Assembly (NCBI GenBank): GCA_964016885.1
Contig: OZ024740.1
Coordinates: forward strand, 111,166,001-111,230,000
Length of the DNA stretch: 64,000 bases
Source: Eledone cirrhosa
Lineage: Eukaryota
Reading direction: 5' to 3'
This document shows positions 13,482 through 60,859 of this stretch, one piece after another. Below the pieces are notes generated by a model. It was not told where the DNA came from. It saw only the letters and a list, made by a program, of their open reading frames with translations, and ran no database searches. The position numbers and the translations under genes are program-made. The first letter of the stretch is position 1. Each line of letters opens with the position of its first letter.

Positions 13482-13485
<4 letters not shown>

Positions 13486-13670
13486 GTTTCTACTTTAGGC
13501 ACAAGGCCAGCAATTACCCAGTGCATTACTGGTACTTTATTTTATCGACCCCATAAGGATGAAAGGCAAAGTCAACCTCGGCCGGATTTGAACTCAGATC
13601 GTAAATGGACGTAACTATGCTGGAAAGCATGGCATCCGACCCTCTACCGATACTGCCAATCCACCGCCTT
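13482..13670 (-). mobile_element. tRNA-derived SINE, full length
   Basis: Minus strand starts AAGGCGGTGGATTGGCAGTATCGGTAG and has the B-box, core and AGAAACAATT tail. Confidence 0.9.
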
Positions 13671-13683
13671 ATATATATATATA

Positions 13684-14060
13684 TAATACCTACAGAAAAG
13701 AAACGTTATCGCTCTACATGGCTGCATACAATAAATGTAATCTGAGTTTTTCGAATATTAATAATAATATTCGATTCGTTTGCAATTATGCAAATAAGCC
13801 TGTCTGCTAATATGCAAATCAGGCCGATCAGTCACTGTATATTCACTAGCTCTGACAGTTTTGCAGGTGAACAGTGAACTGCACTGATGAAGGGTGATAC
13901 CTAGAAACATTAGTGTCTGCAGTTCTGTTTACATAACAACACAAGAGCAAGAATGAAGGGCTCATTCTACTGACATGGCATAAAAGAGGATTGTTTGTAT
14001 AATTGCAAACGAACCGAAATTTATTATTAATATTCGAAAAACTCAGATTACATTTATTAT
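13684..14060. mobile_element. HHR-bearing element with ~70-bp inverted repeats (13730-13800 / 13988-14058) in (TA)n
   Basis: AATAAATGTAATCTGAGTTTTTCGAATATTAATAATAA... is present at both ends in inverted orientation; two ATGCAAAT octamers (13788, 13812). Confidence 0.8.
13876..13925 (+). ncRNA. Type I hammerhead ribozyme
   Basis: GAACTGCA-CTGATGA-AGGGTGATACCTA-GAAA-CATTAGTG-TC-TGCAGTTC; perfect 8-bp stem I, GUC cleavage triplet at 13915-13917. Confidence 0.9.
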
Positions 14061-18277: not shown

Positions 18278-18279
<2 letters not shown>

Positions 18280-18424
18280 AACCAGTAAGACCCCGACAGC
18301 TGAGCTCAAGCCGTTTCGACGGCTAATTCTGGACTCGGTTCCTATTACACACTCTACTACCTCAAGTATTGAGTACTTTGGTGCGTTATGGTCCACCTGG
18401 TTCCTTACCACATTTCCTTCGTTA
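18278..18424 (+). mobile_element. Family A element: inverted arm plus tail in (TA)n
   Basis: Same outer ends as 1599-1753 but a different internal junction (...CTGGACTC|GGTTCCTATT...). Confidence 0.85.
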
Positions 18425-18445
18425 TATATATATATATATATATAT

Positions 18446-18867
18446 AAACGGAAAAAATGAAACGATATTTCATTTCCCACTCTTAGTACGGCTGTTACTT
18501 AAATATAAGTATATACACGTACATACATATATGTATACCGACGTACAGTAGTATGTATATATATATATACATACATGCACACATATATATATGCGCGTAT
18601 GGATTCACCGAACATTTATTATAATGCTCGGTGTGTTTGTAAACAAACATCCCGTATTAAGCCGTAGTGTCTAGCAACCACCGTTGCTCGTTTGTTCAAC
18701 ACTGACAAAGGAACGCTGTACTAGTTTCAAGCTTGTTAGCTATCGTCAGCAACGTATACCTTCCTGCCAGATTGTTGAACGTATATACTTACCTTATGCA
18801 TATTAACGGCTGAGTAGCCCAATTTGCATATCGAGTGGGTTAATCGGCCGGGTGCACCGAAAACGAT
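18446..18867 (-). mobile_element. Family B retrozyme-like element, exactly one ~422-bp unit in (TA)n
   Basis: Homologous to 52524-53452; its two ends are adjacent in the tandem junction CGAAAACGAT|AAACGGAAAAATG at ~52898. Confidence 0.85.
18713..18755 (-). ncRNA. Type I hammerhead ribozyme (family B)
   Basis: ACGTTG-CTGACGA-tAGCT-AACA-AGCTt-GAAA-CTAG-TA-CAGCGT; 6-bp stem I, palindromic A-CTAG-T stem III. Confidence 0.9.
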
Positions 18868-18920
18868 ATATATATATAAATAAATAAATAAATATATATA
18901 TAAATATATATATAAATAAA

Positions 18921-18980
<60 letters not shown>

Positions 18981-18983
<3 letters not shown>

Positions 18984-19174
18984 CGAAGGAAATGTGGTAA
19001 GGAACCAGGTGGACCATAACGCACCAAAGTACTCAATACTTGAGGTAGTAGAGTGGGTAATAGGAACCAGTAAGACCCCGACAGCTGAGCTCAAGCCGTT
19101 TCGACGGCTAATTCTCCGAGAATTAGCCGTCGAAACGGCTTGAGCTCAGCTGTCGGGGTCTTACTGGTTCCTAT
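18981..19174 (-). mobile_element. Family A element with a perfect 57-bp-arm palindrome (19060-19116 / 19118-19174)
   Basis: Each arm holds the HHR 3' half GAAA-CGGCT-TGAGCTC-AGCTG-TC-GGGGTC; the tail extends left to the TA array. Confidence 0.88.
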
Positions 19175-20053: not shown

Positions 20054-20089
20054 TCTTAACGTTTCGGACGCTAGCCCTTCATCAGAAGA
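20054..20089 (-). ncRNA. Minimal type I hammerhead (Penelope pLTR type) in insert 19975-20186
   Basis: TCTT-CTGATGA-aGGGC-TAGC-GTCC-GAAA-CG-TT-AAGA. Confidence 0.85.
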
Positions 20090-20289
20090 AAGAATGAGAA
20101 ATAAGATAGGTTGAAGGGACGGGCGGGTTAGAATTGGAAAAAATCTCTTTGGATAAATATAACAGATCCATTCCTGTTGAAAACTCATATATATATATAT
20201 ATAGTAAGTTATTCCGGGTTAAATCGGAGGTAACCACAGTAAGTAAGGTACTCAATACATAGCAGAGTATAAAAGTTTTAAAATAGATG

Positions 20290-20340
20290 AGATTCTACAG
20301 GACTAGAACTGTTTCATTCTTGAGAAATCATCAGGAATCT
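20290..20340 (-). ncRNA. Type I hammerhead ribozyme (family C)
   Basis: AGATTC-CTGATGA-tTTC-TCAA-GAAt-GAAA-CAG-TTCTAGTC-CTG-TA-GAATCT. Confidence 0.88.
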
Positions 20341-20579
20341 GACTGTCCAAGTAAATATGGTGGTATTTATATCTTTTCTGGCGGTAGGAGAGGGTGGGGA
20401 GTGGGGTGGGTGGAGGTCATTGGTTAAAAGAAAAGGGAATTCATTAAAAGCTAATTCTAATAGCTTTAAAGAATTAGCTTTTAATGAATTCCCTTTTCTT
20501 TCAACCAATGACCTCCACCCATCCCACTCCCCACCTTCTCCTACTACCAGAAAAGATATAAATATTTACTTGGACAGTC

Positions 20580-20630
20580 AGATTTCTGATGATTTCTCAA
20601 GAATGAAACAGTTCTAGTCCTGTAGAATCT
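20580..20630 (+). ncRNA. Type I hammerhead ribozyme (family C, mirror arm)
   Basis: AGATTT-CTGATGA-TTTCTCAAGAAT-GAAA-CAG...CTG-TA-GAATCT; one G-U pair in stem I. Confidence 0.86.
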
Positions 20631-20695
<65 letters not shown>

Positions 20696-22718: not shown

Positions 22719-22999
22719 CGTGTGTGTGTGTGTTTGTTTGTGTGTGTGGGTGAGTGTGTATTAAATTGTCCCGCCTATTTAAGCCCATATCGAACCGAAT
22801 CAAAACGGGGGCGCACAAGAAAAAGACAACGGAAAAGACCCAGAAAAATGAACAGTCCCTTCTCTTTAGATAACCCCTCGAAATCCTTATAGATTTGGTG
22901 CAGTCAATTTGAGACTCTTCATTCTAATGCTTAATCAATGATAACAGAACAATACATAGAAACAGAGGACAAATTGTGACTTTCGGCGAATTACACAAA

Positions 23000-23190
23000 T
23001 AATTGTTTCTACTTTTGGCACAAGGCCAGCAATTATTCCAGTGTATAACTGGTACTCTATTTTATCGACCCCGTAAGGATGAAAGGCAAAGTTAACCTCG
23101 GCGGGATTTGAACTCAGACCATAAAGGGCGTAACTCTATGCTGCAAAGCATGGCGTCCGACCCTCTAGCGATACTGCCAATACACCGTCC
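23000..23190 (-). mobile_element. tRNA-derived SINE, full length
   Basis: Same family as 13482-13670. Confidence 0.9.
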
Positions 23191-23354
23191 TGAATTAAGG
23201 CGGTGAATTACACAAATAATGAAATAAAAAAGAAAGGCTACAAACCAATGTGCTTCAATTTATAGGGAGAGATGTGTAATAGCCTTGCCAAAAAGAGCAA
23301 GGTATATATTTACATATCTATATATATATGTATGTATAAATATATATATAAATA

Positions 23355-27216: not shown

Positions 27217-27404
27217 AACAAAGGAATTGTGGTAAGGAGCCAGATGGACCATAACGTACCAGAATACTCAATACTTAGGGTAGTAGAGTGGGAAATAGGA
27301 AAAAGTATGACCCCGACAGCAGAGCTCAAGCCGTTTCGACGACTATTTCTGGACTGAAATAACCATCGAAACGGCTGGAGCACTGCCGTCGGGGTCATAT
27401 TTTT

Positions 27405-27410
<6 letters not shown>
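27216..27410 (-). mobile_element. Family A variant fold-back element with diverged arms
   Basis: Tail homologous to family A; the 55-bp arms differ at 8 positions; a 20-bp orphan arm lies at 27488-27507. Confidence 0.85.
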
Positions 27411-28656: not shown

Positions 28657-28698
<42 letters not shown>

Positions 28699-28741
28699 TA
28701 TGATATTAGATAAATGGAAACTATATTTATAAAACCATATT

Positions 28742-28806
28742 TATTTTATTATATATATTTCAAAGGCAACTAAGCCAACGTTGGTGCGCTTTCATCAGAT
28801 AAAATA
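28742..28806 (-). ncRNA. Hammerhead in the inverted pLTR arm
   Basis: TATTTTAT-CTGATGA-AAGCGCACCAACGTTGGCTTAGTTGCCTTT-GAAA-TATATA-TA-ATAAAATA. Confidence 0.82.
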
Positions 28807-29164
28807 CAAAGTTTGTTTCATAAATAAAGACGTACCCATGAAGATTCAACCTTATCGGTCGGAAATTCGCTGGATAGTGGAAACATATTAGGGAATATTC
28901 AAAGTTATGTATGAATATGCAAATGAATGTGTAAATAATTGTAAATATCTCACCTAAATATCTCACCTAAAACTATGGAACGGTACTAGTGCCGTTCCAT
29001 GGTTTTAGGTGAGATATTTCTTTAAGTTGCGGCATGATTCTATCTAATATATATTTACTAACTATGCCTAAATCTGATTTAGATGGTGCTATAAGTTTAA
29101 CTGGTACTTCTATTTGAAAGTTTCTTTTGTGGTCTTTCAGGTTAATTTTTGGTTTTCTAGGTAA

Positions 29165-30770
29165 AAAATTAACCTGTAAGACCACAAAAGAAATTTGAAA
29201 TAGGACTACCAGTTAGACTTATAGCACGACCTAAAACCATGGAACGGTACTAACGAAATTATAGATTGGTTCAATAACACTAAATTTAAACATAACAAAA
29301 AATTCATTCAATTGGATATTGCAAATTACTACTCCTCTATCACTCCTAATTTACTTAACAAAGGCCTTATCTATGCATCTAAACATACATATTTATCTAG
29401 TGAAGAAATGCATATCATTTTAACTGTACGGAAAACTTTAATTGAATTCAACAACCATCTCTGGACTAGAGCGGACAGAAAAAATAATTTCGATATCACC
29501 ATGGGGTCATCGGTCTCGGCGCAAATAACGGATCTTGTGGGGCTATTTATTAATAATACACTACATAGAAAAATACCGGAGACGACCGGAGGTTTATATC
29601 GTGATGATATGTTACTTTTAATTGAAAATAATAGTAATTGTGAAATTAATAGAAAAGAAAATTCAATAATACAATTTTTCAATAGCTATAATCGTAAGTT
29701 AGAAATAGAGAATAACTATAAAATTGTTAACTTTTTAGACGTAACATTAAACCTTAACACAGGGCACTACTATCCATTACATAAAATTAATGAGAATTTA
29801 AACTATGTAAGCTTCAACACTAATCAGCCTAGATCTATTAAGAACACTACTGTAAATTCTATACAACAACGTATTTCTCGAATCTCCGCTAATAAAAACA
29901 TTTTTGACGATAAGGCAGAATATTATAATGAAGCTTTAAATAAATCAGGCTATATAAATAAGATTAAATACATCGACAACAGTGATAAGGGAAATAACCA
30001 TACTATTAATTATAATTACAATAAAAAACTTAAATGCTAAAACTAACAGAAGAAATATAACTAGAAATATAATTTGGTATTCACCTCCATTTTCATTAAG
30101 CGTTAAAACACCTTTAGCTAAACTATTCTTTAAAGCTCTAGATAAATGTTCGGCTAAAGCCCATAGATATCACTCAATCTTTAATAGACATACAATAAAA
30201 CTATCTTACTTAACTACTACGAACCTAGCACAAAATATACATAGAATCAATAATAGAAATCTAAACCATAACCAAAATAGCAGTATTATCACTAGCAATA
30301 TCCAACATAATAATACCGTTCCGAATAACATCAACTCCGCTAAATGTAATTATAGAATTAAATCAAACTGTCCTTTAAAAAACAAGTACTTAGATAAGGA
30401 TGTGGTCTATAAACGCACAGTCAAAACCAGTGAAAATATATTTAACTATCTAGGTTCAACTTCTACAGACTTTAAAAATCGTTTTAATAATCACAAATGC
30501 TCGTTTAATAATATTGGTAAAAAAATATTCAACTTCTCCATCAAACCTGATATGGAACTTGAAATCCAAAAATATTGACTATTCTTAACTATTCTTTAAC
30601 TTGGGAAATAATTTCATATGCATCTGCCTAGCGAAACACAGCTTTATCAAATTGTGTGTTGGGGAAATTTTCTTCATACTTAAATGTAAGAACTCTATTA
30701 AAATACGTACGAATTTATTTAGTTCTTGTAAACATCGCCTAAATTCAACATTTAGAACTATATATAAATT
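29165..30770 (+). pseudogene. Penelope-like RT + C-terminal GIY-YIG endonuclease, frameshifted (YRDD type, tentatively Nematis-like)
   Basis: FIQLDIANYYSSI, MGS..SAQITDLVG, GLYRDD, VNFLDVTL; then CN.RIKSNCPL and VVYK...NYLGST..FKNRFNNH. Confidence 0.92.
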
Positions 30771-31909
30771 ATAATTACACTTATAATATTTCTACTTATT
30801 TCTATATATTGTTTGCTATATTTTCACTTCTTATAACTTCACTTATTAACACTTCTTAAATTATATACATATAGGATCCGAAAATTTTTAAATTTAAATT
30901 TTAACTTTAATTTTAATATTTTTTAAGGTTTTTTAATTCTTTATTTTTTATTATTATTTTTTTTACTTCTTAAATCTTTCTTTTTCATTATTTATTATTT
31001 TCTACTTCCAAAATATTTTTACTTCCAAAATATTTCATATATTTAAAAATTACTTATTTTTAAAAAATTACTATTTTTTTAAAAATTACTTATTGTTTTA
31101 AAAAATCTACTTATCTCGTATATAATATTTTAAAATAACTTTTAAGGTTTTTTTAAAATTTAAATAAACATTTAAAAAAAATCTTTTTTAAAGATTTTTT
31201 AAAGGATTTTTTTATATTTTTTAAATATTTAAAAAATATTTTAAAAATATTTTAAAAGTATTTTTTAAGTATTTTTTAAATATTTTAAAAACGTTTTTTA
31301 AAATGTTTTTAGAGTATTTTAAAATTATTTTCCCATAATTTTCCAGAATATTTAATATTTTTTTATATTTTTTAATGGAAATTTTTTTATTAGATTTATA
31401 ACCAATAACTCATTAAAACAATTATATATAACAAGATATGCCCATCTATCCATTCATATATCTATTTTTCTATATATCTATTTTCTATCTATTGATTCTT
31501 CTATATATCTAGCTTTCTATCTATTTAGTTTTCAACTTATTTTTCAACATAATTTTTATAAAATTTTTATATATCTATTTTTTCTATCTACTTATAATAG
31601 TAAATATACGTACCATTAGTAGATATAAACTTATAACTTATTTACGTTACATGAGTTCTATTCATCCTCTTGTAAATGTCATCTCTCTTTCTATCTCACA
31701 ATATTAATATTTTTTCATCTCTCTCTTTCTTCCCTATCTCTCCCCAGCATCATTTAAATAAACGGTTGTTTTTTCAATTATTTACACATTCATTTGCATA
31801 TTCATACATAACTTTGAATATTCCCTAATATGTTTTCACTATCCAGCGAATTTCTGACCGATAAGGTTGAATCTTCATGGGTACGTCTTTATTTATAAAA
31901 CACACTTTG

Positions 31910-31974
31910 TATTTTATCTGATGAAAGCGCACCAAGGTTGACTTTGTTACCCTTGAAATATATATAATAAAATA
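31910..31974 (+). ncRNA. Hammerhead in the 3' pLTR
   Basis: TATTTTAT-CTGATGA-...-GAAA-TATATA-TA-ATAAAATA; 8-bp stem I, stem II more decayed than in the 5' copy. Confidence 0.78.
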
Positions 31975-32106
31975 AATATGGTTTTATAAATATAGTTTCC
32001 ATTTATTTAATATCATGGAATATTTACTCCAGTAAACTGTTGAGTGCTCTACATCAGTTATAAACATTTATGTTTGTCGGAATTCCAACAAATTAAATAC
32101 AACTTC

Positions 32107-32181
<75 letters not shown>

Positions 32182-32274
32182 ATATGTATGTGATGAAACA
32201 CAGATACCAACACATCTGTATATATATTGCAAAAGAAAAATTTAGCCAGATTGAAGCATATCAATTTGTCCCTG

Positions 32275-32402
32275 GATGTTTACTGAGGAGATCAGGACAT
32301 GATATTCCTACACTTATTTAACTCGAAACATATTTGGATTTTAAAGTTTAAACTTATTTACGGAACAGGTTTGATTTTGAAATTTAAATGTGTCTAAACA
32401 TC
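32275..32402 (+). ncRNA. Type I hammerhead with long stem III (family F, copy 1)
   Basis: GATGTTTA-CTGAGGA-GA...TC-GAAA-CATATTT...AAATGTG-TC-TAAACATC; predicted cleavage after C32394. Confidence 0.9.
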
Positions 32403-32790
32403 ATAGCCTCTTGGCAATACAGTTCGTCTTCGTTGATTTATTATTTTAAATCGATATGGACAAACTGTAGTATAATAATTAGTATACTTCAATCTGGCTA
32501 AATTTTTCTTTTGCAATATATATACAGATGTGTTGGTATCTGTGTTTCATCACATACATATTAGTTTATACACGGCTCAGGGGGTATTTTCCTCCTTCGA
32601 GCTAATTCCATTGTAAAAGAATTCATTACCTTATTAATTTAACTGCTCCTAGTTTGAGCTGCAAGCCGCCTCATATATACGACTGTTATTTCTAGCAGTA
32701 CGGTTATGAGACTAGTTAGATACTGTAAAACCATGTGCGTCACGCAGTCTTTTAAATTATTTAGAAGTGAAGCATATCAATTTGTCCCTG

Positions 32791-32918
32791 GATGTTTACT
32801 GAGGAGATCAGGACATGATATTCCTACACTTATTTAACTCGAAACATATTTGGATTTTAAAGTTTAAACTTATCTACGGAACAGGTTTGATTTTGAAATA
32901 TAAATGTGTCTAAACATC
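32791..32918 (+). ncRNA. Type I hammerhead (family F, copy 2)
   Basis: Same as copy 1; predicted cleavage after C32910, 516 nt downstream. Confidence 0.9.
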
Positions 32919-33184
32919 ATAGCCTCTTGGCAATACAGTTCGTCTTCGTTGATTTATTATTTTAAATCGATATGGACAAACTGTAGTATAATAATTAGTA
33001 TACTTCAATCTGGCTAAATTTTTCTTTTGCAATATATATACAGATGTGTTGGTATCTGTGTTTCATCACATACATATTAGTTTATACACGGCTCAGGGGG
33101 TTTTTTCCTCCTTCGAGCTAATTCCATTGTAAAAGAATTCATTACCTTATTAATATATATATATATATATATATATGTTACAGT

Positions 33185-42340: not shown

Positions 42341-43565
<1,225 letters not shown>

Positions 43566-51066: not shown

Positions 51067-51672
51067 ATGGTGGCTGCCAACTCGTTTTCGAGTACGGCCA
51101 CTACTTTATATCCATGTAGGAGAACCCCTACTGATGCGCTAAAGGAGTGTGACTTTTCAGTCCAGCCAGCGACTTGAAAACTCGGGTACAAACACTACAC
51201 TTGTGACAATTATTGACACATAGTGCTGGGCCCATGGTACCATGTCACGACAAGTGCAGAGAGATCTCCAGATATAAAGCAATGCCTGTGCCGTGAAGCT
51301 TTTATAGTGAGCAAAGGCACTGCACAAAGCCAGTCCCACTCTCTTAACCAAGATGATATTTACCAAAAAGAAGAACAAGTCAACATCATTGGATACCATC
51401 AGAGTTGCAGGTGTTATATCAGAGTTTTCCTTCTCCTAGAATTCTGCCTTGACAAAGGCTAAGGGGTCATCTCTCCCGGTGATTTTGGATGGCCATTGAC
51501 TCTTAAGAGCTCCTTTGCCCTTTGACAGGTTTTGTTTTTAGTCCTGCAGGATGTCCAAAGTCACCCTCCTCACCAAGCAACCTTGGTGGGGTTGCCAGTT
51601 TAGTCGCCAACGAGCCGACCATGAGACAGGTTGTACTGGGATACATGTTACCAGTAGCACCAACTGGGGACC
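51067..51672 (-). mobile_element. ~605-bp non-autonomous retroelement (RTE 5'UTR-like head, stem-loop 3' end)
   Basis: Near-identical full-length copy at 57193-57801; contains CTAGGAGAAGGAAAACTCTGA; no real ORF. Confidence 0.78.
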
Positions 51673-51858: not shown

Positions 51859-53452
<1,594 letters not shown>

Positions 53453-54109: not shown

Positions 54110-55560
54110 CAAAATTTGTATAATGCTTGAAATGTTCTTACAGACTTATGTAGACAACATCCGAATAATTCTTTTTTCTTATTAATTAAATTACCATAAA
54201 TTGTAATTATTAATAGAGTTTCCAAATTGCAAAGATTGCAATTTGGTGAAATGGAAGCGTTTCGATAGGAAACAGAATCCTTTAGTTTACTTCAAGAAAT
54301 TGAGTATTTAATATTTTTCTCTTTTAAAGACCATATTAATTGTGATAATGATGTAGAACATTTTTTATCTGGATTAGAGAATGAATGTTTTTGATTGGAA
54401 AAGCGAAACTTAAAGTTCGATGAAGTGGCACCAATGTAGTTATAAGTATTATTATTACTTGTCTTAATGGTACATTTATATACTATATTCTTGTCAAGGC
54501 AATTATTTTGTAAAGGGCATTCAGATTTCCGTCTACAATTTCAGTTCAATTCAATGTTATTTCTATAACCTAAACTATTCGTATTATCATTATTATTTCT
54601 AGGTGTTCTACTATTAATCGTATTTAAACTATTATTATTGTTATTCACATTAACTAATGTATTATTATCATTATTATATTTTTGTTATGATCGCTGGTTC
54701 AAATTAAGAATTTTGCTATTTATTTTTGCAATATTTTGAGCAATATTCATAGTTGTTGAATAAGAGAGTTTAACTGTGTGTCTATTGAAGATAGAGTAAT
54801 ACTTATGTGATCTAGGGAAACATTTATCCAAGGGTTTAAAAAATAAATGTGCTAAAGGTGTTTTAATAGCTAAAGATACTGGCGGAGCATACCAAATTAT
54901 AGATCTAGTCCAATTCGCCCCCCCCCCCCCCCCCTGATTTATTCCTCAAGTTGTTATATTTACACTCAGTTTTATTTTTATTATTATGAATAATGTGTTT
55001 ATAATTAATATTATTTATTTCTACATATTCAATATTATTTTTATATCCTGCTTTATGTAACGCTTCATTATAATATCCAGCTTTACTATTAAAAATGGAT
55101 CTATTAGCAGATAGTCTGGATATTCCTTGTTGGACACTATTGACTATTGCATTTTTAACACTTTTAGGATGATTAGAGTAAAAGCTAAAATTATTTAAGT
55201 TTTCATTGAGTTTATAGAAGGGGTACTACAGGCCTGAGTTTAAATTAAGGGTTATATCTAAAAAGTTAACTATTTTATTGTTATTTTCTACTTCTAATTT
55301 CAGGTCATAATTTTTAAAGAATTCTATAATTACTTTCTTTACTCTATTTAATTCGCTATTATTATGTCTAACTACAGTAAATAATATGTTGTCTCTATAT
55401 AAACCACCGGTAATCTCCGTCAGTTTTCTATTTATCATATTAAGGATGAAAATTTCCACAAGATCGGTAACTTGTGCCGAATCGGACGAGCCCATAGTAA
55501 TGTCAAAATTCTTCAGCCTATCAGATCTATTGCAAAAATCATTATTAAAATCAATCCTTT
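54110..55560 (-). pseudogene. Second, diverged Penelope-like RT + GIY-YIG remnant
   Basis: MGSSDSAQVTDLV, GGLYRDN, VNFLDITL; NCRRKSECPLQNNCLDKNIVYKC...NYIGATSSNFKFRF. Confidence 0.9.
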
Positions 55561-56079
55561 GTTTACATTCTTCGTAAATAATTTTGTTCTGTCCAAATGG
55601 ATTGATAATGTATATTTAACATGATTTATACAGTTTAATAATATACGAAAAATCCTTAAAGGGAAACTATATATAATAAGATGTAATTACGGAAGTAAAA
55701 TCGAAATAATAATACTTTTAAGAGTAAATATAACTACTAATTAATCCTGTAATGAAATGACAACCAATGAATTGAAATGATTTTATAATGAAAATAGAAT
55801 AATTCAGATAATACTTCTTAACATTATATAAAATATATATACTGATGGTGATATATGCATGGGTTTTAGTAAATATCCTTATACATATTTAATAGGTATT
55901 TAAACTTGCTTTAAAGTTAAAAATGATTTTGAATATTGTAACAAAATATTTAGTAAATATATTAATTAAACTATGCTTCTGATTACTATAGAAAATATTT
56001 TTATATTGTTTAATTTTGATATAATATATTAGTATAATTAGCTTAAACATAACCAAATACCAAAGATATTAAAAAATTT

Positions 56080-56185
56080 AATTGTTTCTACTTTTGGCAC
56101 AAGGCCAGCAATTACCAGTACATTACTGGTACTTTATTTTATCGACCCCGTAGGGATGAAAGTCAAAGTTAACCTCGGCGGGATT
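56080..56185 (-). mobile_element. SINE, partial
   Basis: Family core and tail. Confidence 0.85.
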
Positions 56186-56558
56186 AATTTAATGGTATTC
56201 ATTTGGTCGCTTCTATTTGACTTAATATTTGAAAGCAACAGTCACACATCATTTCCCTTTCTTTCTTTTTCGCCGTTACGTCTTTCTTCTTCTCTCTTCT
56301 ATCCTTTTTCTTCCCTAACACGTATATTTACACATTTAAATATTTATGTATGTATTTATTTATTTTCTTCTTGCATTTTCTCATACTCACCCCTCCTTAT
56401 GCCTATATCTCGCTCCACATGCTCTTCTTCATTATATTTAAGTTTGTTATGTTATTATTTGTGGTATATAAATGTTGAGATTTGTTGTAATAAATCACTG
56501 CCAATACTGGAATTGAAGCATCAAGACCGTTGAGGTATGTCATGCATCAATTCATGTA

Positions 56559-56620
56559 TTTTATCTGACGAGGACGTACTGAAAAAACAGCACAGTACCT
56601 TCGAAATATATATAATAAAA
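56559..56620 (+). ncRNA. Hammerhead in a pLTR homologous to 31900-32060, opposite in orientation to the 54-55.5 kb ORF
   Basis: TTTTAT-CTGACGA-GGA.GTACTG...CAGTAC.TTC-GAAA-TATATA-TA-ATAAAA; downstream ACTCCAG..AAC...GAGTGCT as in the 32 kb tail. Confidence 0.87.
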
Positions 56621-56940
56621 CAGATTTTTTTAATTATATGAATGTCTTCATTTATTAATATTATGAATAATATTAATAACTCCAGAAAACTTCTTTGTAG
56701 AGTGCTTTTAATCTATTTTAAAACTATTTCATTGAGTAATCAATGAACCATATTAATCTTTGGTCATATATATATATAAGTAGTAGAGGTGCAATTGGAT
56801 TGCGTTCAGAGGTGGTATGCCAAGATGAACACTCGGTGCTATTGGGGAGCAGAGTATCAATAATAATAAATACGGAACAAAGAATCAGTATTGCATCATA
56901 TACATATTTGATTATATATTACATGTATTTCACTGCCGAT

Positions 56941-57192: not shown

Positions 57193-57801
57193 ATGGTGGC
57201 TGCCAACTCGTTTTCGAGTACGGCCACTACTTTATATCCATGTAAGAGAACCCCTACCGATGCGCTGAACGAGTGTGACTTTTTAGTCCAGCCAGCGACT
57301 TGAAAACTCTGGTACAAACATTACACTTGTGACAATTATTGACACATAGTGCTTTGCCTTTGGTACCATGTGACGACAAGTGCAGAGAGATCTCCAGATA
57401 CAAAGCAATGCCTGTGCCGTGAAGCTTTTATAGTGAGCAAAGGCACTGCACAAAGCCAGTCCCACTCTCTTAACCAAGATGATATTTACCAAAAAAAGAA
57501 CAAGTCAACATCATTGGATACCATCAGGGTTGCAGGTGTTATATCAGAGTTTTCCTTCTCCTAGAATTCTGCCTTGACAAAGGCTAAGGGGTCATCTCTC
57601 CCGGTGATTTTGGATGGCCATTGACTCTTAAGAGCTCCTTTGCCCTTTGACAGGTTTTGTTTTTAGTCGTGCAGGATGTCCAAAGTCACGCTCCTCACCA
57701 AGAAACCTTGGTGGAGCTGCCTGTTTAGTCGCCAACGACCCGACCATGAGACAGGTTGTACTGGGATACATATTACCAGTAGCACCAGCTGGTGACCTGA
57801 C
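57193..57801 (-). mobile_element. Second copy of the ~605-bp non-autonomous element, in (TACA)n
   Basis: Colinear with 51067-51672. Confidence 0.8.
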
Positions 57802-58442: not shown

Positions 58443-58604
58443 AACTTTAATTAGTTACCTACATAGCTGTGAGTGCTTACACACTTTACAAATTATTCCC
58501 TGTGATTGTTTCATATGTTTATATATATATAACTTTAATTAGTTACCTACATAGCTGTGAGTGCTTACACACTTTACAAATTATTCCCTGTGATTGTTTC
58601 ATAT

Positions 58605-58617
<13 letters not shown>
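58443..58617 (+). repeat. Exact 88-bp tandem duplication ending in (TA)n, resembling a PLE-type tail
   Basis: AACTTTAATTAGTTACC...GTGAGTGCTT...ATGTTTATATA at 58443 and 58531. Confidence 0.85.
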
Positions 58618-58646
<29 letters not shown>

Positions 58647-58648
<2 letters not shown>

Positions 58649-60716
58649 CAGGTTTAGTGCTCTGTGTGGAGAGTCAGAGGAGAGAGAGATTGGATGGACT
58701 GAGGAGAGTGTGACGAGGAGGTACGGGCACTTCACCAATGCAGTGGCGAAAGCAAGTGAAACCCTGGTGCCGAGGAAAAAGAACAAATGGAAGCACGTCA
58801 GCTCTGCAAACCCAAAAGTGTGTGCAGCCAGAGAACACCTGAAAGCTGCCAGGGACCAATTCTATGCTGATCCTACGGAGGAGAGGATGGAGACTGTGGA
58901 GGTGATGAGGGAAGAGCTCTGTACCGCTTACACTGAGGTCAGAGAGGAGGCACTGATAGAGAAGATCAGAAGTGTGGAGAGAGCGGTTGACAGATCTGGA
59001 TGTAAGGAGAGCTGGATGATCATCAACGAGATCACAGGGAGGAAGAAAAGGTGTTCGAGTCAGATCCAGGGAACGGGGCCCGAGGATAGGAAGAGGAAAT
59101 GGCTAGACCATTTTAGGACCCTACTAGGAGAGCCACCCTCCACAGCCCAGAGCACTGGGGAGATCAGGCGGCTGTTTGAGGAACTGGATGTTGAGACAGA
59201 GCCCTTCACCAGAGAGGAGCTTCAGAGAGCCAAGAAGAAGATCAAGGAGGGCAAGGCTCATGGAGAGGATGGAGTGGCATCAGAGGTGATGAAGAGGTGT
59301 GATTTTGATGATATCATCCTGGGGTTCTGTAACGGGGCACTGGAGAAAGGAGTTGCCCCGAATCAGTGGAGGATCAGTAACATCGTCCCAGTGCCAAAGA
59401 AGGGAGATCTCTCTAACACCAACAACTACCGGGGGATCTCACTGACGTCACTTGTGGCAAAGACCCTCAACAGGATGATTCTTAACAGGATCCAGCCTGA
59501 GATGGAGAAGAAGCTCAGGGACAACCAGAACGGCTTCAGAGAGGGTAGATCAACCACCAGTCACATCCTGATGCTGAGGAGGATATTAGAGGGAGCTAGA
59601 GCAAAGTGCCTTCCTGCGGTCATGGTTTTCATTGACTTTAGGAAGGCCTTTGATTCTGTGGACCGTTACTGCCTGATGAAGATCTTACAGGCTTATGGAA
59701 TCCCCAAGAGGATAGTGGACCTGATATCACTGCTCTACACCAACACCAAAGCCCAAGTCATTACACCTGATGGGATGACAGAGTTCTTTGAGATACTGGC
59801 TGGAGTGCTCCAGGGAGATACATTGGCTCCCTACCTTTTTATCATCGTAGTGGACTATTGTATGCGCCTTGCACTGGAGAAACACCAGGACTCTGGCTTT
59901 ACTGTGGCACCGGCTCAGAGCAGGAGAGTTGGGGCGAAAAAGGTATCGGATGCTGAGTTTGCCGACGACATAGTTTTGGTGACAAATACAGTGAAGGAGG
60001 CAGGGGATTTGATGCGGGAGGTTGAGACTGTGTCGATGAGTGTGGGGCTGAGAATGAATGAGACTAAAACAAAATATCTGGTAGAGAATGTTGAGAAGCC
60101 AGAGGGGATCACTAATGTAGGCGGGAAGCCGCTGGAATTGGTTGAGGACTTCCTGTATTTGGGAGCAAAGATTGGGAATACGGAAGATGATGTGATTGAG
60201 AGGAAGAGCAAGGCCTGGGCGGCGTGTCACAGCTTGAGATCGGTGTGGAAGTCAGACCTTCGTAGAGACCTGAAAATCCGCCTCTTCATTGCTGTAGTGG
60301 AGTCTGTGCTGCTGTATGGGTCTGAGACTTGGACACTGACCAAGAGACTCACTCAGATGGTGGATGGGTGCTACACGAGAATGCTGAGGATGGCTCTGAA
60401 CATTAATCAGTATACACTGAGGATGAAAAACTCAGAGCTGTATGGGAGCATCCCAAAAGTCAGCTCAAAAGTGACACAGAGAAGACTGAGGTTGGCTGGA
60501 CATGCTCACCGACATCCAGAGTTGACATTGCACTCAGTGCTCCTTTGGGAGCCCCTACATGGACACACTAGAAGAGGAAGACCAAGGTTAACATATGTTG
60601 ATGCCCTAAGGACAGACACTGGTCTGTTGGAGATGCAGGATATGGCAGCGATAATGAGGGACAGAGACCGCTGGAGAGAACTCGTCCATGGATCTCGGGA
60701 ATTTTACCCGCCTTAG
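58647..60716 (+). CDS. RTE-clade LINE reverse transcriptase, 5'-truncated (no endonuclease), about 689 uninterrupted codons
   Basis: PKKGD..NYRGISL, QNGFR.GRST, FIDFRKAFDSV, GVLQGDTLAPYLF, FADD, FLYLG, LLYGSETW, RGRP; flanked by (TA)n. Confidence 0.95.
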
Positions 60717-60859
60717 ATAGATATATATATATATATATATATATGTCAATCAATTTCTAGTTGATATAAAATGCTCGGATCTTTTCATTGGAATCTCTGA
60801 GCATATTCTACAGTGGATATGGTACATGTCTCTCGGACATGACACCCTTAATTTAATTT

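Follow-up and report, generated by a model that had tools for sequence, protein, structure and literature searches.

The repeat described here has its closest published relatives among retrozymes, Penelope-type elements (PLEs) and hammerhead-bearing satellites, which are summarized from the accessible parts of the cited sources. Retrozymes have non-coding units of 150-450 bp with a GC content under 50%, and those of coral, mussel and axolotl have been detected as circular RNAs by northern blot (PMC7229834). PLE RTs have been proposed to copy such circles into longer-than-unit cDNA (PMC7229834, PMC4209133, PMC7761336), and the circular-template model itself is already published (PMC4209133, PMC7229834). 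Animal retrozymes are said, in the accessible part of PMC7761336, to lack any motif pointing to their mobiliser, and a preprint ties non-LTR retrozymes to PLE pLTRs by homology and records many solo monomers (bioRxiv 10.64898/2026.07.22.740005). PLE insertions characteristically consist of partial tandem copies that have an inverted arm at the 5' end and a tail on one side (PMC8557442). Among PLEs, the Hydra clade is defined by the motifs RWK, DKT and CxCx5C, targets (TA)n and carries canonical hammerheads (HHRs) (PMC8557442, section 11). In an Anolis PLE, two internal RT start sites were described in vitro, the tail being the stretch between them (PMC11167929). In the literature that we searched, which was largely open-access, we found no mapping of retrozyme insertion ends in laps of the unit.

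Here we analyzed a 64-kb stretch of DNA (the window) in which blastn of positions 18446-18867 against the whole stretch detected three copies, at two loci, of a repeat that we call family B. Unit positions are numbered on the HHR strand, nucleotide 1 being 18867 and nucleotide 422 being 18446. The copies have two 3' ends, ~60 nt apart, named S1 (unit 422; copies 1 and 3) and S2 (unit ~360-365; copy 2). The copies and their surroundings are:

18446..18867, minus strand: copy 1, one full family B unit of 422 nt, non-coding (blastn, doubled-unit alignment)
18446..18505, minus strand: 60-nt tail between S2 and S1, unit 363-422 (copy alignment)
18423..18445, no strand: (AT)n target on the 3' side of copy 1 (sequence)
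18868..18982, no strand: (AT)n/(AAAT)n target on the 5' side of copy 1 (sequence)
52522..52966, minus strand: copy 2, inverted arm lacking the tail, 3' end at S2, ~6-13 nt longer than one lap (doubled-unit alignment)
52965..53451, plus strand: copy 3, tail plus full unit, 3' end at S1, 5' end at S2 (doubled-unit alignment)

On the doubled unit, copy 1 covers positions 1-422, copy 2 runs from 353 to 422 and on from 1 to ~364, and copy 3 from 363 to 422 and on from 1 to 422, which corresponds to 1.00, ~1.03 and 1.14 laps, respectively. The first-pass annotation had described copy 1 as exactly one lap of a circularly permuted unit that measures 427 bp at 52.9 kb, and the alignments bear this out: copy 1 is a single 422-nt unit, its two ends are joined head-to-tail at 52.5-53.5 kb, where the junction is read directly in both copies 2 and 3, and copy 3 has a period of 427 (52965 vs 53392). 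The end that it quoted for copy 1 is indeed joined to the opposite end in the 52.9-kb copy, but read along the HHR strand it is the 5' end. Copies longer than one unit, which it had expected, are represented by copies 2 and 3. The discrepancy between 422 and 427 is due to indels in copy 1, and unit size in family B ranges from 422 to 431 nt. While the head-to-tail junction is present, we found neither a tandem array of family B nor a copy with two HHRs in the window. With a maximum of 1.14 laps, one HHR per copy and no array of at least two units there, family B is unlike what the 'active retrozyme' rule describes in the accessible part of the preprint (bioRxiv 10.64898/2026.07.22.740005).

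The flanks of copy 1 continue the circle for 1 nt on the 5' side and 2 nt on the 3' side, so that its lap is exact apart from a 3-nt ambiguity, these nucleotides being common to the unit and (AT)n. The chance of such an exact lap in a single copy is 3/422 (0.7%) if the end falls uniformly and 1/56 to 1/21 (2-5%) if an end must share 3 nt or more with (AT)n, both values having been computed post hoc for copy 1. Formally, copy 1 could also be the product of a single crossover at this 3-nt AT homology, that is, of an excised DNA circle recombining into (AT)n, and the inverted locus at 52.5 kb could be an assembly fold-back artefact. We regard such explanations as highly improbable: recombination should prefer the long AT run at unit 299-310 over S1, S1 doubles as the 3' end of copy 3, 8 of 274 aligned core positions are substituted between the two arms formed by copies 2 and 3, whose flanks also differ, and the same anatomy recurs in unrelated families of the window.

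Mapping of the copy ends gave a picture familiar from PLEs. None of the six ends of the three copies lies at the predicted cleavage site; termination of all copies there was what the first-pass annotation had named as refuting its reading. The single fixed 3' end that this annotation anticipated was not found; the copies use S1 and S2, and the intervening stretch, with a 10-bp hairpin at ~18454-18476, amounts to the known Penelope tail. Copy 1 has no LTR, and copy 3 bears a 60-nt terminal repeat that is this same tail. All 5' ends fall at most 10 nt from S1 or S2, zones that make up 10% of the circle; copy 1 ends 0 nt and copy 2 ~6-13 nt past its own start, and these starts differ (S1 and S2, respectively). 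Copies 2 and 3 stand head-to-head with a 2-nt overlap and an 8-nt central loop, their 3' ends pointing outward into (AT)n, and both loci abut (AT)n at each of their two outer ends. A fold-back in which copy 3 came first was considered and rejected, as the loop belongs to the cDNA strand of copy 2.

At 52.5-53.5 kb, a partial tandem is combined with an arm inverted on the 5' side and a tail on one side; together these are PLE anatomy, from which we conclude that family B inserts like a PLE. A one-sided extension of 40-129 nt abutting (AT)n was present in 9/9 of the inverted-arm inserts measured, which include a Hydra-like PLE and were chosen by eye from a self-comparison of the window. Small inverted pieces within the 28.7-32.1 kb insert were excluded from this count, and a short insert at 18278-18424 (family A) was omitted because it is without an internal inverted arm. 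As described in the accessible parts of the sources, Hydra clade PLEs (PMC8557442) and the Anolis element Poseidon PAc (PMC11167929) share with family B the partial tandem, the head-to-head inverted arm, the tail, the (TA)n target and an HHR upstream of two 3' ends. In contrast to endonuclease-bearing PLEs, as far as these sources describe them, family B has no ORF, its unit is 0.4 kb rather than ~2-3 kb and its tail is 60 nt rather than 30-40. We are confident that family B is a PLE-mobilised HHR retroelement.

Additional features within the unit of copy 1 are:

18713..18755, minus strand: type I hammerhead motif, the core starting (C3 nucleotide) at 18749 (descriptor and fold)
18506..18596, minus strand: AT-rich microsatellite-like segment, predicted long hairpin (sequence, fold)
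18822..18829, minus strand: octamer-type motif, possible promoter element, 80 nt upstream of the HHR core (sequence)

All conserved type I elements, namely the core, helices I-III and the NUH cleavage triplet, are present in copy 1. Helix I has 6 bp, helix II has 4 bp and sits on a U.U pair (10.1-11.1), and helix III has 2 bp inside a 6-nt palindrome. The cut is predicted after 18719 (unit nucleotide 149), at a GUA triplet, which leaves 149 nt of the unit before it and 273 after; the hammerhead is thus internal, as had been claimed, although 'in the middle' was a loose description. The active fold lies 1.4 kcal/mol above the MFE. A descriptor composed after the motif of copy 1 had been seen matched 7 times in the window (100 shuffles averaged 0.02 matches and never gave more than 1), and the bare core pattern occurred 15 times against 2.5 in shuffles. 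Judged as a sequence motif, the hammerhead of copy 1 is real and far above chance. Among the three copies it is kept intact only in copy 1, since copy 2 carries a 5-nt deletion in helix I and a mismatch in helix II and the core of copy 3 has changed from GAAA to GCAA.

Database searches added little. Rfam returned 0 matches at gathering level over the entire window, and the 87 matches with E up to 10 between 17.5 and 21 kb, mostly miRNA models on hairpins or AT repeats, included no hammerhead; on a 111-nt stretch, HH9 matched weakly (19.2 bits vs a gathering level of 52, E 0.009). A 19-nt HHR pattern had 0 matches in bacterial and archaeal genomes, which is uninformative for an animal repeat, and a 10-nt HHR motif had one match, within an unrelated ORF, in the accessible part of the supplement of Craig et al. 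Copy 1 has a GC content of 38% and a longest stop-free stretch of 53 codons (six frames, doubled unit), on which ground a protein-coding role for family B was rejected; an RT or GIY-YIG ORF is absent from its six frames. Folded as a circle, the unit is predicted to be more stable than any of 60 shuffles (z -5.8), and the unit without its microsatellite part, folded as a linear molecule, more stable than any of 100 (z -5.4).

In its size (422 nt), GC content, type I HHR, lack of an LTR in copy 1, dispersed monomers and strongly self-paired predicted circle, family B resembles metazoan non-LTR retrozymes. Axolotl HHR_Amex2, according to the accessible part of PMC7229834, likewise has a U.U at the foot of helix II and is similar to family B in its short helix III. 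Similarly, newt satellite 2 and Schistosoma Sm-alpha are described in PMC6155905, as far as accessible, as few-hundred-bp repeats that contain a type I HHR whose helix III is weak, and the newt hammerhead works as a dimer (PMC6155905). Unlike these, which are mainly tandem satellites, family B is dispersed in (AT)n and, unlike animal retrozymes as PMC7761336 describes them, has ends that map to PLE-type start sites with an inverted arm and a tail. Newt monomers whose termini do not coincide with the cleavage site probably occur in vivo. Family B is a previously undescribed family of a kind already known, the non-LTR retrozyme or non-autonomous PLE.

Further type I HHR motifs lie in unrelated (AT)n-bounded inserts at 2657-2702, 13884-13917, 20058-20085 and 56565-56614, and at 13884 helix III is longer and helix I spans 8 bp. 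The motif at 18822..18829, which we take to be octamer-type, is one of 11 in the window (13788, 13812, 18822, 28917, 31792, 52853, 53062, 12230 and three others) compared with 5.0 +/- 2.1 in 200 shuffles (maximum 10). Seven of them precede an HHR core by ~70-130 nt; these belong to three unrelated families, and several are copies of one another. By analogy with newt satellite 2, as described in the accessible part of PMC2220036, the motif is a possible snRNA-type promoter element.

The window also holds a candidate for the type of element that mobilises family B:

28698..32108, plus strand: decayed Hydra-like PLE, candidate mobiliser type (homologs, motifs)

This element retains an RT piece (29225-30040) and part of a GIY-YIG domain (29958-30578) in two frames, a 3' HHR at 31918, an inverted arm whose HHR is at 28798 and, on one side, a tail of 91 nt. 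Its assignment is based on 14 homologs of the RT piece, with 34-48% identity, and on motifs aligned with three homologs: two of the three carry RWK, DKT and CxCx5C and the third CxCx5C only, and the RT piece of the window has a degenerate CxCx5C. Pfam yielded no family for this RT piece and sub-cutoff matches only for the other PLE pieces. The inverted arm, one-sided tail and (AT)n target are common to family B and the Hydra-like PLE, in which the 3' ends lie 52 and 142 nt past the cut, compared with 213 and 273 nt in family B. A search with unit 1-270 of family B against seven other elements of the window found no significant similarity (best E 0.012, an AT-rich 12-mer). A second decayed Hydra-like PLE at 54500-56770 is 68% alike to 28698-32108 over 830 nt; both copies have an inverted HHR-bearing arm, and their hammerheads share an extended helix II region and a palindromic helix III consisting only of A and T.

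Other repeats were observed in the window. Family A comprises four short fold-back inserts (1600-1751, 18278-18424, 18983-19171 and 27218-27409) that all use one pair of 3' ends, ~80 nt apart, and in which no valid HHR was found; in 18278-18424 the tail-bearing arm consists of the tail plus ~6 nt, as if cDNA had stopped at the second start. Copy 1 of family B is flanked by two family A copies within one (AT)n tract. A non-coding-looking 516-nt unit is inserted at 32177-33157; it runs for 1.75 laps (32.25-33.16 kb), its inverted arm measures ~90 nt and its tail 70 nt, and it has two copies of a degenerate HHR-like core, both of which failed the descriptor. Near-perfect long inverted inserts at 20203-20633 and 51890-52390 carry a tail on one side only (80 and 129 nt, respectively), and the former has in both arms an HHR-like core that fails the full descriptor. 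LINE-type RT ORFs (Pfam RVT_1) are found at 58539-60716, open for 725 codons and with homologs up to 78-79% identical, and at 42428-43441; the few named homologs of the former are for the most part from marine invertebrates. A 298-nt repeat (3-300 and 60427-60724, 92%) matches the 3' end of a LINE ORF, and a 604-nt repeat (51069-51672 and 57195-57797) has 96% identity. Finally, a SINE-like high-copy repeat of ~200 nt, presumably akin to octopus SINEs, is present at 2256-2412, 13483-13668, 22996-23191 and about a dozen more places, and the repeats of the window as a whole may resemble those of octopus.

What was the template of family B? With none of six ends at the cut and two copies longer than one lap, we reason that the template ran uninterrupted through the cut site and had terminal redundancy; a terminally redundant template of some sort is highly probable. 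All three copies read through the cut, which, barring a precise RT jump in every copy, eliminates an HHR-cut linear monomer as template, as the first-pass annotation had argued. Its further step, that the template was a circle or an uncleaved multimer, survives as regards terminal redundancy but not as an exhaustive choice, because an uncleaved linear RNA of 492 nt with a single HHR (unit 353-422 followed by 1-422) contains all three copies. For the same reason an exact lap alone does not prove a circle; such an RNA would be the kind of longer linear master that the first-pass annotation had itself named as refuting its reading. Nor does the internal position of the hammerhead argue for a circle, as had been suggested, an HHR with 3' ends downstream being the normal PLE layout.

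We consider the best explanation, with a probability of about 0.55, to be that family B is a non-autonomous Penelope-type non-LTR retrozyme copied from a unit circle; for the template being specifically circular RNA we see an even chance. Since no copy in the window has two HHRs, this explanation places the source locus elsewhere. A source with at least two HHRs would be transcribed, and the transcript would be cut by HHR dimers and ligated into a unit circle, as in the published model. A (TA)n-targeting PLE RT/GIY-YIG protein, Hydra-like or similar, would then nick (AT)n, the target in which the copies are found. cDNA would be primed at internal site S1 (unit 422) or S2 (unit ~362), where both 3' ends are observed, and the RT would pass through the intact HHR site, as it does in the copies. 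It might tend to stop or be resolved on returning to its own start, giving copy 1 (S1 to S1) and copy 2 (S2 to ~10 nt past), and priming at both target ends, with or without cDNA fold-back, could have produced the 52.5-kb locus. PLE RTs are not known to have RNase H, and ends near their own starts, as in copies 1 and 2, would be expected if the RT stalls on meeting its own cDNA.

Several observations weigh against the circle. There are only two independent family B loci, and the unrelated 516-nt unit, although also longer than one lap, halts at 1.75 laps with an arm of ~90 nt, which means that a one-lap stop is not general in the window. In vitro, mutation of the HHR left insertion of the Anolis PLE undiminished and, in the accessible text, no RNA-seq reads from this element end at the cut (PMC11167929), and 8/9 Xenopus dimers did not cleave in vitro (bioRxiv 10.64898/2026.07.22.740005).

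A possible but rather unlikely alternative is that a source in partial tandem gave a linear transcript that stayed uncleaved and was either terminally redundant or multimeric, as envisaged for Penelope. Copy 1 would then be 5'-truncated and would have reached S1 by (AT)n microhomology or by PLE endonuclease trimming at the tail boundaries. Besides the 492-nt master, the confinement of all 5' ends to the S1 and S2 zones agrees with this alternative. The accessible parts of earlier reports point the same way: endonuclease resolution at the tail has been proposed (PMC8557442), the main in vitro substrate was unprocessed RNA (PMC11167929), and Penelope copies without terminal repeats, or with the tail repeated at both ends as in copy 3, are described (PMC2377424). 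Without trimming, however, a linear template requires two coincidences, the exact end of copy 1 (0.7-5%) and the end of copy 2 at most 13 nt from its start (~3%), and it cannot regenerate the upstream repeat, a problem named as open in the accessible part of PMC2377424.

The exact end of copy 1 would need no coincidence at all if the template were a linear uncleaved monomer with true ends at unit 1 and 422, copy 1 being a full-length SINE-like copy and the junction an RT template jump. The junction occurs at one locus only (52.9 kb), possibly from one event, and carries the 3-nt AT homology of the target, which would make a jump reproducible. As far as the accessible sources go, a weak palindromic helix III is expected to cleave poorly as a monomer (PMC4209133), and the newt HHR satellite owns an snRNA-type promoter (PMC2220036). 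We nevertheless judge this monomer improbable, as it leaves the end of copy 2, ~10 nt past its own S2 start, unexplained and would need a promoter or start at unit 1.

Returning to the unit circle, two copies with different starts, at two loci, both stop at or just past one lap. Conceivably, copy lengths are the genomic footprint of an RT travelling around an RNA circle and stalling at its own cDNA, with length peaks at whole laps, although we think this doubtful. In its strongest form, two RTs may work on each circle, one copying the tail while the other laps and folds back, which would account for the one-sided tail and inverted arm of all PLEs. Family A does not confirm this two-RT form because the loop-bearing arm is inconsistent among its hairpins; by eye, the loop belongs to the tail-less arm at 1.6 kb and to the tail-bearing arm at 27.3 kb.

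In summary, family B is not unusual in kind: it is an animal HHR retrozyme whose insertion ends are of PLE type, and its value is that of a test case. It bears on the debate over how PLEs regenerate their terminal repeats and what their HHR does, in which, as far as the accessible sources go, a circle model (PMC4209133, PMC7229834) is set against cleavage that is dispensable in vitro (PMC11167929). A non-coding HHR repeat is here tied to PLE machinery by insertion anatomy, whereas the accessible part of the 2026 preprint (bioRxiv 10.64898/2026.07.22.740005) used homology and co-occurrence. The short unit and two distinguishable RT start sites make the PLE template question reducible to a histogram of 5' ends. 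If true, a whole-lap footprint would be in vivo evidence for a circular template and would offer a means of settling the purpose of the PLE hammerhead.
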